50,650 nucleotides of DNA from positions 1 to 50,650 of the forward strand of contig JAJRAN010000076.1 in NCBI GenBank assembly GCA_028682915.1, given 5' to 3'. Below the pieces are notes generated by a model. The model saw only the letters and a program-made list of their open reading frames with translations, did no database searches and was not told the DNA's origin. Position numbers and translations under genes: made by a program. The stretch is from Methanomassiliicoccales archaeon. Its GTDB lineage: Archaea; Thermoplasmatota; Thermoplasmata; Methanomassiliicoccales; UBA472. Below, piece by piece: positions 20 to 2,791 of this stretch (its first letter is position 1; each line of letters begins with the position of its first letter).

Positions 20-58
20 GGCTACTTTCAGCCCACTCCCCCCTCCACCCCTTTATAC
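20..58 (+). promoter_or_regulatory. Promoter of the RadA-like gene: ACTTTC box (24-29), C-rich tract, TATA-like TTTATAC (52-58)
   Basis: 30/39 identical, ungapped, to 2753-2791 upstream of the polB2 operon; TATA-like element about 35 nt before the ATG at 92. Confidence 0.75.
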
Positions 59-91
59 GCCGGAGCGCAAGGGGGTACATAGGGGAGGCGA

Positions 92-838
92 ATGAGCCAA
101 TATCTAGAAGCGGACGCGCCCGGCTCCGGGGCGGTGAGCGTCGAGGCCAACAGGGAGCTGATACAGACGCGCCCGCAGCGGCGGCTGAGCACGTCCGTCA
201 AGGCGCTCGACGACTTCATCGGGGGGTTCCCCTCCTCCCAGGTCACGCTGATCGACTCCTCGGACCGCCTGGTGCTCGACATCGTCCACCTCCTCTGCGT
301 CAACCAGGTGCTGGAGGAGGGCCGGGACGTGGTATGGGTGGACGGGGGGAACTCGGTGAACCCCTACGCCCTAACCAGCCTGTGCAAGCGCTTCCGGGTG
401 CGCTCGGGCGAGGTGCTGGAGAGCGTGAACGTGTCCCGCGCCTTCACCGCCTACCAGCTCGTGACCTTGATAGAGGAGATGATGGAGGCGGAGGTCGCCA
501 GGACCAGGGCCGGCCTCCTGGTAGTGACGTCATTCCCCGACCTGTTCCAGGACAAGGACATGTGGTGGTCCGAGTCCCTGCAGCTGATGAAGCGGTGCCT
601 TGCCTGCATGCGCGAGGTGACCAGGAGGCACGGCACCGTCACCCTCGTCACCAACCTCGGCCTGTCTAAAATGCTGTACAAGAAGAGCCTGCGCAGCCTG
701 ATGTACTCCTCCGCGGACCAGGTGCTGCGTATCGAGAGCCAGCGCGCCGCGCTCCGGATCAGCGTGGTCAACGAGGGGCGCAGCATGCTCTATCACCCCG
801 TCCCCTACTACCAGCGCACCCTGGACGAGTTCCGGTGA
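92..838 (+). CDS. RadA/Rad51-like paralog lacking Walker A (PolB2-associated, ImuA-like) with C-terminal PIP-box-like motif
   Basis: RecA-fold signatures LSTSVKALDDFIGG, VVWVDGGNS, VSRAFTAYQL; P-loop position reads IDSSDRL (no GxxxxGK[ST]); ends QRTLDEF; RBS GGGGAGG. Confidence 0.8.
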   Translation: MSQYLEADAPGSGAVSVEANRELIQTRPQRRLSTSVKALDDFIGGFPSSQVTLIDSSDRLVLDIVHLLCVNQVLEEGRDVVWVDGGNSVNPYALTSLCKRFRVRSGEVLESVNVSRAFTAYQLVTLIEEMMEAEVARTRAGLLVVTSFPDLFQDKDMWWSESLQLMKRCLACMREVTRRHGTVTLVTNLGLSKMLYKKSLRSLMYSSADQVLRIESQRAALRISVVNEGRSMLYHPVPYYQRTLDEFR

Positions 839-903
839 TGCCTAGGCGCGCACCTGACACCTTTAAGCAGGGGGAGTTGCCTAACAGCCTGAGGAGATTC
901 ACC

Positions 904-1317
904 ATGGCGAAGAAGACCAAGAAGGGTTTCGTGGGCAAGATCGAGAAGGATACGATCAAGAATGCGGATTTCCGCCGCGTGCTCTACACCGGCAAGTACA
1001 GCCAGCTGGTGCTGATGAGCCTGAAACCAGGGGAGGAGATCGGGGAGGAGGTGCACGGCGACGTGGACCAGTTCTTCCGCTTCGAGGAAGGCAAGGGACT
1101 CGTGGTCATCGATGACGTCGAGAACGAGGTGAAGGACGGCATGGCAGTGGTCGTCCCATCTGGTGCCAAGCATAACGTGATCAACACCTCCAAGAAGAAC
1201 GACCTCAAGCTGTACACCATCTACTCGCCCCCGGAGCATCAGGACGGGGTGGTGCGCCACACCAAGCAGGAAGCGATGGACAAAGAGGAGCACTACGACG
1301 GGAAGCCGACGGAGTGA
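904..1317 (+). CDS. Cupin domain protein
   Basis: Cupin motifs GEEIGEEVH..DQFFRFEEGKG and VVVPSGAKHNVIN; ATG at 904 after GAGGAG. Confidence 0.85.
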   Translation: MAKKTKKGFVGKIEKDTIKNADFRRVLYTGKYSQLVLMSLKPGEEIGEEVHGDVDQFFRFEEGKGLVVIDDVENEVKDGMAVVVPSGAKHNVINTSKKNDLKLYTIYSPPEHQDGVVRHTKQEAMDKEEHYDGKPTE

Positions 1318-1401
1318 TTTGTAAATAGGGCCAGCAAACCGTTTACCTTCTTTCTCTCAACTCGAGCTTTGCATCAGTTTCAAGACAGTTCGAAATGTTT
1401 A

Positions 1402-1446
1402 TATGTTAGTTTAACATAACATTTTGTTAGACATAGATAATATGTC
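1402..1446. promoter_or_regulatory. Nested palindromes, probable operator of the DUF2178-XRE operon
   Basis: TATGTTA-gtt-TAACATA (1402-1418), TAACA-ttt-TGTTA (1417-1429) and GACATA-N5-TATGTC (1430-1446), directly after TTTATA. Confidence 0.6.
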
Positions 1447-1460
1447 GGAGGTGAAGTAAA

Positions 1461-1883
1461 ATGGATGAGATGACGAGGAGATGGGTGATGGTGGGCATCA
1501 CCACGGTTGTCCTGTTGGCGATCGCGCTCATAATCACCCTGACCGAAGGAATCAACGTCTGGTCGATGTTGATGCTCGTGGCCATAGTGGCATTAGCGCT
1601 GGTAGCTATCGCGATGGTGGTCAAGTCCCAGAGGGAGATAAAGAGCGGCTTCCCCAAGCAGGACGAGAGGTCGATCGCCCTCAGCATGCGCGCCGGCAAC
1701 AAGGCGTTCTACGTTAGCATGTACCTGTTCCTATTCATGGGCTTGGGACTCATGAGTCTGGATGACCAAGAGATGTTGATCTCCAACGCCGAGCTGCTAC
1801 TATTAGCCGTAGCCATCATGGGCTCGATCCATATCGTCCTCAGCGCCTACTACAACCGAAAGGGAAGAGTGGGGCAGGAATGA
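1461..1883 (+). CDS. DUF2178-like membrane protein
   Basis: Four hydrophobic helices, DER motif (KQDERS...RAG..AF), coupled to a short XRE gene; RBS GGAGGTG. Confidence 0.75.
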
Positions 1884-2074
1884 GGACCAGGATCAAGGAG
1901 CTCAGGGCGCGATACGGCATGACCCAGGAGGACCTGGCCAAGATGGTCGGCGTGCGCAGGGAGACCATCCTCTTCATCGAGAAGGGCGAGTACAATCCCT
2001 CGTTGAACCTGGCGCATGCCATCGCCAGGGCGCTGAAGACCTCCATCGACGAGCTGTTCCTCTTCGACGACTGA
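1880..2074 (+). CDS. XRE/Cro-C1 family HTH transcriptional regulator
   Basis: [40 protein letters not shown] overlap with upstream gene. Confidence 0.92.
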
Positions 2075-2109
2075 TGCGTTCCGGGACAGCTCGGCTAGGC
2101 GCCCTTTCT

Positions 2110-2724
2110 CTACTCTTTCGCGCTCTGACCCACCTTCCGGTTCTCGGCCGCCGCGCGCGCTATCTCCTCCACCCGCTTGGCCCGGGTCTCGGGGCGCTTG
2201 GCGCTGAGCACCCAGTAGATGGCCTGCTTCTTGTAGGAAGCGATGAAGGACTCGAAGTTCTCCTTGGCCGGAGGATGGGCCAGTAGGGCCTCTTCCAGGT
2301 CAACCGGGACCTTCAGCTCCTCAACGTCCTCGATCATGTTCCAGCTGCCGTTCCTCTTGGCAGCCTCGATCCTTTCCATGCCCGCTGGGGTCATCAGGCC
2401 CTGCTCGATCAGCTTCCTGGCGCGCTCCTTGTTCGACCTGGACCAGATGCTTTTCGGCCTGCGCGGGGACATGTGTATCTTGAAGCGCTCCTCGTCCATG
2501 ACGTTGGGGCGGCTGTCTATCCAGCCGAAGCAGAGCGCCTCCTCCACCGCTTCCACGTAGGAGATGCCCTCCCTCCTCGCTCCCTTCTTGACCAGGACCA
2601 GAAAGACGCTCGCAGTCTGCTCGTGGTTCTTCTCCAACCATTTCCGCCACTTCGCCCGGTCCATGTCGTACAGGACCTCGAGCTGGTCATCGCCCTTGGC
2701 CGTTCGCGCACGCCCCTGGCGCAT
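2110..2724 (-). CDS. YdeI/OmpD-associated family protein
   Basis: WRKWLEKNH, AVEEALCFGWIDS, PRRPKSIWS..NK, AKRPETRAKR; exact start uncertain. Confidence 0.85.
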   Translation of the reverse strand: MRQGRARTAKGDDQLEVLYDMDRAKWRKWLEKNHEQTASVFLVLVKKGARREGISYVEAVEEALCFGWIDSRPNVMDEERFKIHMSPRRPKSIWSRSNKERARKLIEQGLMTPAGMERIEAAKRNGSWNMIEDVEELKVPVDLEEALLAHPPAKENFESFIASYKKQAIYWVLSAKRPETRAKRVEEIARAAAENRKVGQSAKE

Positions 2725-2752
2725 TATCGTCGCCCGGGCTAAAGAATGTCTT

Positions 2753-2791
2753 GGCCACTTTCGCGCATCTCCCCCCTCCCTCCCTTAATAC
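2753..2791 (+). promoter_or_regulatory. Promoter of the small-protein/polB2 operon: ACTTTC box (2757-2762), C-rich tract, TATA-like TTAATAC (2785-2791)
   Basis: Same architecture and spacing as 20-58; RBS GGTGAT at 2813-2818. Confidence 0.75.

Follow-up and report, generated by a model that had tools for sequence, protein, structure and literature searches.

The window analysed here, a stretch of 50,650 nucleotides that is the entire contig C80 of the genome of a Methanomassiliicoccales archaeon (1.84 Mb in 148 contigs, 93.7% complete), starts with the genes of the known PolB2 mutasome, split into iRadA on one side and PPB2-PolB2 on the other, and each part stands behind its own copy of a conserved upstream promoter module. 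This is composed of the hexamer ANTTTC, six bases, a C-rich box and a TATA box about 20-22 nt past the hexamer, the stretch before the TATA box being rich in pyrimidines. The same module precedes the repair genes radA, rpa and mre11 and a small open reading frame (ORF), and we have hardly any doubt that it is a real regulon element, i.e. a conserved and specific promoter module with a defined gene set. The features of the two promoters and of the genes behind them are as follows:

24..29, plus strand: ANTTTC box (ACTTTC) of the iRadA promoter; A.TTTC is invariant in 38 distinct orthologous promoters
36..46, plus strand: C-rich box (CTCCCCCCTCC) of the iRadA promoter, beginning 6 nt past the hexamer
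52..57, plus strand: TATA box (TTTATA) of the iRadA promoter, preceded by CACCCC and no A-rich TFB recognition element (BRE)
92..838, plus strand: iRadA, 248 aa, RadA/Rad51 fold without Walker A (no GxxxxGK[ST])
2757..2762, plus strand: ANTTTC box (ACTTTC) of the PPB2-PolB2 promoter
2769..2779, plus strand: C-rich box (CTCCCCCCTCC) of the PPB2-PolB2 promoter, from sequence and orthologue alignment
2785..2790, plus strand: TATA-like box (TTAATA) of the PPB2-PolB2 promoter, from sequence and orthologue alignment
2822..3088, plus strand: PPB2, 88 aa, its 3' end overlapping the start of polB2
3057..5270, plus strand: PolB2, 737 aa, family-B DNA polymerase

The two sites, 20-58 and 2753-2791, align without gaps at 30 of 39 positions, and in both the start of ACTTTC lies exactly 28 nt ahead of the start of the TATA-like hexamer (24 to 52 and 2757 to 2785). 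Their flanks are unlike, with 6/19 identities upstream and 8/40 downstream. When site 1 was compared with 3,678,520 39-mers from both strands of the genome, at least 26 of 39 matching positions were reached by site 1 itself (39), by a copy on contig C74 (36) and by site 2 (30), the next best 39-mer having 25. The pattern ACTTTC-N20-24-TTWATA occurs twice in the window compared to no occurrence in 100 dinucleotide shuffles, and four times across the whole genome. The C-rich 11-mer by itself, with one mismatch, is found in the window at chance level (5 observed, 4.5 expected), showing that the signal is the combination of boxes. An earlier note on this DNA had claimed the likeness of the twin sites, the distance of 28 nt and a link by twin promoters between the separated RadA-like gene and the polB2 operon, and all of this stands, the likeness lying outside the genome background.

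Contig C74 carries at 1-330, at the contig end, a second iRadA promoter followed by the first 85 codons with 86% protein identity. It probably represents the same locus in a second strain of the bin or an assembly overlap.

Aligning the 38 distinct promoter sequences from upstream of iRadA and PPB2 (alignment A1) resulted in the consensus CACTTTCGGnCATCTCCCCCCTTCACCCCTTTATA, in which, besides A.TTTC, the C residues at columns 19 and 21 are invariant and the one at column 23 is near-invariant. The spacer between hexamer and TATA box is 22 nt at PolB2-type promoters, with 21 nt in two cases, and approximately 18-21 nt at the radA, rpa and mre11 promoters. The C-box varies with the promoter: it is strong at the PolB2 genes and the small ORF and of intermediate strength at radA and rpa, while most mre11 promoters lack it. 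The hexamer, which is not a palindrome, stands ahead of the TATA box; with the iRadA transcription start expected near position 81 from the usual archaeal TATA-to-start spacing, it is predicted at about -57 to -52.

The earlier note had read the C-rich tract as taking the place of the purine-rich BRE found at a tRNA promoter of the window (AAAGG-TTTATAA on the minus strand, 20421-20432, in front of tRNA-Met at 20318-20393). Among 11 tRNA promoters of this genome alignable at the TATA box, A is present at -5, -4 and -3 in 8, 9 and 8 cases, respectively (GAAAGG-TTTATA), whereas the module shows CACCCC or CCTCCC, mostly C, at the BRE positions. The observation of a pyrimidine-rich BRE position is thereby supported, but the tract is not simply a replaced BRE, being a conserved second box at some promoters only and missing at most mre11 promoters. 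The 93.7%-complete genome contains one TFB gene, a single ORF encoding two cyclin repeats and one Zn ribbon, and one TBP gene. An alternative TFB/TBP pair acting at the module promoters was therefore ruled out, and with a single TFB and a single TBP a dedicated factor is needed; core promoters without the A-rich BRE of strong promoters fit such a need for help.

The conservation of the module was assessed with a fixed rule: ANTTTC, 18-23 nt and a hexamer with at least five A/T, the whole arrangement being no more than 170 nt away from the start codon. Applied to the loci of order-level relatives, it gave the following counts:

iRadA: 28 of 29 loci
PPB2: 14 of 29 loci, these being 14 of the 14 loci split from iRadA
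radA (Rad51 plus HHH_5): 27 of 30 loci, including families without PolB2
rpa: 28 of 30 loci, the two misses reading ACTTTT
mre11: 21 of 30 loci, with a Rad50-like ATPase gene next in this genome
ORF of 50-65 aa without known family: 10 of 11 loci; judged by eye, all of 13 loci and two others
Orc1/Cdc6 type A, control: 2 of 30 loci
Orc1/Cdc6 type B, control: 0 of 21 loci
Reverse complements, control: 7 of 210

The three misses at radA belong to one family and show AGATTC or GTATTC variants together with a C-box. At the 15 of 29 loci where PPB2 lies directly behind iRadA, the module is found only at iRadA, whose promoter serves the operon; at the 14 loci, from five genera, where PPB2 lies apart, it has a module copy of its own in every case, which is the pattern predicted by selection for co-regulation. 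We extended the analysis to 80 named iRadA loci with protein identities down to 41%, 76 of which offered at least 100 nt of upstream DNA and were assessed. The arrangement was found at 73 of these 76 loci from named Thermoplasmata, Methanomassiliicoccales included, with C (39), G (22) or T (12) as second base of the hexamer, defining the element as ANTTTC. Distant Thermoplasmata iRadA promoters read ctAGTTTCaccnnnCTCCCCCCtgcaccgnTTTAACtc, the C-box being kept as AGTTTC-N6-CTCCCCCC. Overall, six unlinked gene families have kept the module, in seven families of the order as well as in Thermoplasmata outside it.

The genome of the window has eight occurrences of ACTTTC-N19-22-TATA-like, each of them in front of a gene of this set: iRadA (on both contigs carrying it), PPB2, radA, mre11, rpa, the small ORF or dcd. 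A search of 41 relatives with a profile made from the 38 sites (R1) gave leads to four further gene families, which were then checked orthologue by orthologue; the profile failed to pick up the majority of the radA, rpa and mre11 promoters, and its E-values are approximate. Conservation of the motif upstream of orthologues and its enrichment at repair genes (radA, rpa, mre11-rad50 and the PolB2 mutasome), both suggested by the earlier note, are thus borne out across the order and beyond. Its further suggestions, orc1/cdc6 and tfb paralogues, did not hold: orc1/cdc6 loci are nearly or entirely free of the motif, as the controls listed above show, and the genome has a single TFB gene.

The genes behind the twin promoters agree with the known mutasome operon in gene content and order, in an iRadA without Walker A and in a PolB2 with a substituted Asp in DxD; they differ from it by four inserted genes and by each part having its own promoter copy. 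iRadA shows a partial Pfam Rad51 match (E = 4e-8) and weak RadA/Dmc1 NCBIfam matches, is 88-91% identical to homologues in metagenome-assembled genomes of Methanomassiliicoccaceae/Methanomassiliicoccales and is present in 30 of the 41 order-level relatives, the same genomes that hold a close PolB2 orthologue. PPB2 matched no Pfam or NCBIfam family and lies directly upstream of polB2 in relatives, with 62-95% identity. PolB2 has the Pfam domains DNA_pol_B and exo1 and matches the NCBIfam type B polymerase with E = 1e-139. Its translation shows the first Asp of DxD being replaced (…HGIVDSLW…), in a stretch that we read, against the general consensus, as DxD/motif C. A second, distant PolB paralogue is encoded on contig C7.

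The order iRadA, PPB2, PolB2 on one strand is kept but interrupted by four unrelated genes encoding a cupin, a membrane protein, an HTH_3 protein and, on the other strand, a YdeI-like protein. The membrane protein (weak DUF2178 match) and the HTH_3 (XRE-type) regulator are encoded by overlapping genes at 1461-2074. In one relative (G016), an ORF ending just before the PPB2 promoter shares C-terminal residues with the HTH_3 protein of the window. The mutasome operon is reportedly also to be credited to Makarova 2014. The names iRadA and PPB2 and the role of PPB2 in the PolB2 complex are taken from Timinskas 2025 (PMC11791011), according to whose available text damage induces all three mutasome genes in Sulfolobales and orc1/cdc6 genes are enriched around polB2; nowhere does that text use the word 'promoter'.

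The small ORF is unannotated and lies at 293-442 of contig C144 in this genome. It encodes 50-65 aa across relatives, with the conserved segments WE[ED]VY.LYGV, PS.GE and PTP.T and the ending ..WF in family f1, and is present in 13 of the 41 relatives, always behind a promoter with ANTTTC and C-box. Its product matched no Pfam or NCBIfam family and had only four close homologues among the near-length proteins of a large protein set; we regard it as a candidate damage-response effector. Genera without the ORF of about 50 aa (G012, G015) show other small ORFs of 69-76 aa behind strong motif matches, two of them with Cys-rich C-terminal halves. Four further genomes (G035, G018, G038, G023) have lineage-specific genes behind the motif: one for a C-5 cytosine DNA methylase, two additional PPB2-like ORFs and two for proteins of approximately 250 aa with a weak Zn-dependent phospholipase C/nuclease-like match. 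For radA of family f5 (G028, G032, G036, G040), only query residues 119-319 are matched within open frames of 491-499 aa, which points to inserted sequence, possibly an intein, or to a long extension at the N terminus.

To our knowledge, a regulated DNA-damage response has been proven among archaea only for the Sulfolobales. The reports on Sulfolobus, as far as their available text goes, describe A(N)TTTC in S. acidocaldarius at -44 to -39, next to a weak BRE, as essential for ultraviolet (UV)-inducible promoters (Le 2017, PMC5817253), and show for S. islandicus that Orc1-2 footprints ANTTTC and that mutation of the element abolishes induction by 4-nitroquinoline-1-oxide (Sun 2018, PMC6061795). 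Induction of dpo2, encoding PolB2, depends on Orc1-2 (PMC6061795), and the available text of two reports gives the PolB2 orthologues as the only damage-induced polymerase genes in Sulfolobales (PMC6061795; PMC11791011). The module described here shares with this DNA damage-responsive element (DDRE) and Orc1-2 system the non-palindromic hexamer with a free second base, its position upstream of a weak (non-consensus) BRE and a TATA box, a gene set including the PolB2 (dpo2) operon and homologous-recombination genes, and the presence of a second, faster-evolving Orc1/Cdc6 paralogue in every relative searched. Compared with the 20-bp S. islandicus consensus AATAGTTTCRGWDTACTCWS, as given in the part of the source available, the arrangement ACTTTC-GG-NCAT-CTC agrees in the R-G that follows the hexamer and in a C-Y-C with identical offset, which is suggestive only. 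It differs from the Sulfolobales system by an extra conserved C-rich box, by lacking a box at the gene of the candidate regulator (0/21), by the lack of a TFB3-like second TFB in this 93.7%-complete genome and by the absence of ups and ced genes from the gene set.

In Halobacterium, TTTCACTTTCA is found upstream of the TATA box of the UV-B-induced genes radA1, top6B, vng17 and vng280, radA1 being the top UV-B-induced gene, and similar motifs precede radA of other haloarchaea and of Methanospirillum, the regulator being described as unknown in the available text (Boubriak 2008, PMC2556686). Both systems have an ACTTTC core upstream of the radA TATA box; they differ in that the hexamer of the module is single and followed by a C-rich box and in the gene set, here the PolB2 mutasome, rpa, mre11 and the small ORF. 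The doublet AATTTCACTTTCAC was seen in 2 of 40 phylum-level radA promoters (L343, L363). The statements of the earlier note on ANTTTC as damage element of Sulfolobales and on a related motif at UV-induced haloarchaeal genes agree with these sources (PMC5817253, PMC6061795; PMC2556686), as far as their text is available. The gene set resembles the bacterial SOS (LexA/RecA) response in comprising a recombinase, a single-stranded DNA (ssDNA)-binding protein, a small protein and a complex for translesion synthesis in which one subunit is RecA-like, and is set apart from it by a non-palindromic module upstream of the core promoter and by archaeal machinery. A candidate SOS-like regulon appears to be new for the lineage, as the earlier note had it, since the literature searched yielded no description of the motif in Methanomassiliicoccales or Thermoplasmata, although supplements of the cited papers (the promoter and DNA-damage-response tables of Sun 2018, the operon tables of Timinskas 2025) may hold detail.

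Our data suggest a model according to which the module marks a small DNA-repair regulon in Methanomassiliicoccales, comprising the translesion PolB2 mutasome, radA, the operon of the ssDNA-binding rpa, mre11-rad50 and the ORF of about 50 aa. Hexamer and C-box would most likely form the binding site of a transcription activator, which upon DNA damage would bring TBP and TFB onto the weak core promoters, in the way Orc1-2 acts on ANTTTC in Sulfolobales; for the activator itself, the second, putatively non-initiator Orc1/Cdc6 paralogue would be the best candidate. With the split of the operon, iRadA and PPB2-PolB2 may each have kept or gained a module copy of their own, by which the subunits would stay co-regulated. 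From the analysis, we consider the regulon as probably being damage-inducible, and the whole reading of an activator-bound module of a DNA-repair regulon switched on by damage as slightly less assured, albeit still having the better part of the probability. What the model adds by inference is that the module activates and does not repress, that damage is the signal, and which protein is the regulator.

The candidate regulator emerges from a comparison of the 41 relatives, all of which (41/41) hold exactly two kinds of Orc1/Cdc6 gene. Type A scores 375 bits against Sulfolobus Sso Orc1-1 (2qby_A), while type B is faster-evolving and divergent, with a lower winged-helix score than type A. In this genome the type B gene is located at 19360-20532 of contig C67, and here and in 20 relatives it always lies directly behind another ORF showing a weak NIF3 Pfam match below the cut-off. 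The genes of types A and B are 40-60 kb apart in several relatives.

We collected radA upstream DNA from 40 genomes of 30 families, out of 121 Thermoplasmatota sampled, and called a bipartite motif by rule. At radA the call was positive for 13 of the 21 genomes that have a strong type-B orthologue and for none of the 19 that lack one, the reverse-complement control being positive in 1 of 40.

According to the available text of Liu 2022 (PMC9738581), Orc1 initiators read the dyad by the winged helix and a G-tract by the initiator-specific motif (ISM), while the ISM target of Orc1-2 is unknown. A hexamer combined with a C/G-tract would suit an Orc1-type reading, though the arrangement differs from that of the origin recognition boxes (ORBs) of this genome. 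On contig C90 (approximately 7900-8150), the region ahead of the type A gene contains two ORB-like repeats, TCCAATGGAAA[C/A]-[A/G]AAGGGGTGGGG, which likely mark a replication origin. Set against the module they show a different arrangement, GGAAA with a G-tract behind it as opposed to TTTC and then, on that strand, a C-tract, and the comparison was put aside. Taken together, we put forward the type-B Orc1/Cdc6 paralogue as the best candidate for the regulator, tentatively and with the chance of it being correct falling somewhat short of even.

Several observations weigh against the damage-regulon model or the regulator proposed in it. The hexamer lies approximately 13 nt further upstream than in the Sulfolobales DDRE and does not abut the BRE, and being further from the TATA box it has a geometry unlike the only proven case. 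A position weight matrix of hexamer and C-box alone is not specific genome-wide, with 12 hits above threshold in the reversed genome versus 10 in the real one, which is why orthologue footprinting was used for the regulon calls instead. The site at dcd (contig C2:11416-11449, minus strand; ACTTTC-22-TTAATA with a C-rich spacer, approximately 150 nt upstream of the dCTP deaminase gene) is not conserved, one ACATTC variant being found among five relatives, and dcd was therefore dropped from the regulon. For type B, the best solved relative is 1fnn_A with 146.6 bits, barely above the Orc1-1-type 2qby_A at 141. No ANTTTC box is present within 170-200 nt upstream of the type B gene at any of 21 loci; lacking a box and lying directly behind another gene, it is unlike the autoregulated orc1-2 of Sulfolobus, and Orc1/Cdc6 autoregulation was rejected on the basis of 0/21 loci for type B and 2/30 for type A. 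The radA co-occurrence has a Fisher value of 2e-5 with the relatedness of the genomes ignored. Its replicate at rpa, the orthology of which is uncertain at phylum depth, goes in the same direction under the bipartite rule without being significant (8/25 versus 1/15, Fisher 0.12); under a simple rule there is no signal (9/25 versus 4/15, reverse-complement control 7/40).

Among the alternatives, the one surviving best is a real cis-element serving constitutive, growth-phase or cell-cycle (replication-coupled) expression instead of a damage response. The proteins encoded by rpa, radA and mre11-rad50 also serve normal replication fork maintenance, the sequence carries no damage signal, and the family of the candidate regulator is that of the replication initiators. 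Yet none of 12 ANTTTC module matches found genome-wide precedes a replisome gene (mcm, pcna, polD, rfc or primase), and the set includes the PolB2 mutasome, which is damage-induced in Sulfolobales according to the available text of two reports (PMC6061795; PMC11791011); the Halobacterium radA1 gene carrying the related motif leads the UV-B-induced genes in the part of the source available (PMC2556686). We therefore rate this alternative as unlikely but serious, at about one chance in five.

Less probable still, and in our estimate rather improbable, is the module acting as a repressor operator that is released after damage in a LexA-like logic. Bacterial SOS regulons of similar gene content work by repression, and the C-rich box reaches the BRE position, where a bound protein could block TFB. 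The invariant hexamer, however, is located well upstream of BRE and TATA box, the usual site of archaeal activators, it is non-palindromic, and the core promoters have no A-rich BRE. Mutation of ANTTTC in Sulfolobus abolishes promoter activity and causes no de-repression in the available text of both reports (PMC5817253; PMC6061795), and a LexA-type S24 peptidase domain (PF00717) had no match in the 93.7%-complete genome.

The template strand is very G-rich at 36-51 and 2766-2784 (GGGGTGGAGGGGGGAG and GGGAGGGAGGGGGGAG), making G-quadruplex-like structures conceivable. An action of the C/G tract by DNA structure, as G-quadruplex or i-motif, with the likeness to ANTTTC being incidental, could draw on this G-richness of both window sites. 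It is nevertheless very improbable, as the four G-runs are not conserved, many orthologous promoters reading CATCTCTCCCGTTCAGCTC or similar, as A.TTTC is invariant, and as most mre11 promoters keep the hexamer without the C-box. Finally, although a split of the operon could have duplicated its promoter, chance or a neutral relic of local duplication can practically be dismissed given a twin-site identity far beyond the genome background, unrelated flanks and the occurrence of the module at six unlinked gene families, both within the order, in seven of its families, and elsewhere in Thermoplasmata.

Going beyond the damage-regulon model for Methanomassiliicoccales, ANTTTC and a non-initiator Orc1/Cdc6 may represent an ancient damage response common to Thermoproteota (Sulfolobales), Thermoplasmatota and probably haloarchaea and some methanogens, older than their split, with type B reading the bipartite site and switching on the repair set. 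We offer this as a speculative view, to which we would give roughly one chance in three. Type B would read ANTTTC by its winged helix and the C/G tract by the initiator-specific motif, as Orc1 does on ORB and G-tract, and would switch on radA, rpa, mre11-rad50, the PolB2 mutasome and the new effector of about 50 aa. If true, this would be an archaeal counterpart of SOS with a relative of the replication initiator as master switch.

As a summary, the comparison of promoter sequences suggests a form of the archaeal ANTTTC element with its own architecture, in a lineage without earlier description of it. This provides a concrete cis-element, a defined gene set and a candidate regulator for an order of methanogens living in hosts and in wetlands, as well as for many further Thermoplasmata. 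The module would account for a continued co-expression of the subunits of the PolB2 complex after the operon break, places radA, rpa and mre11-rad50 in one programme with this complex and draws attention to a small protein, so far unannotated, that is likely an effector of the damage response. It bears on the question, raised in the available text of Sun 2018 (PMC6061795), whether proteins of the Orc1-2 cluster outside Sulfolobales do the same job. If the link to Orc1/Cdc6 is true, the coupling between a relative of the replication initiator and damage signalling would be of old origin and common among archaea.

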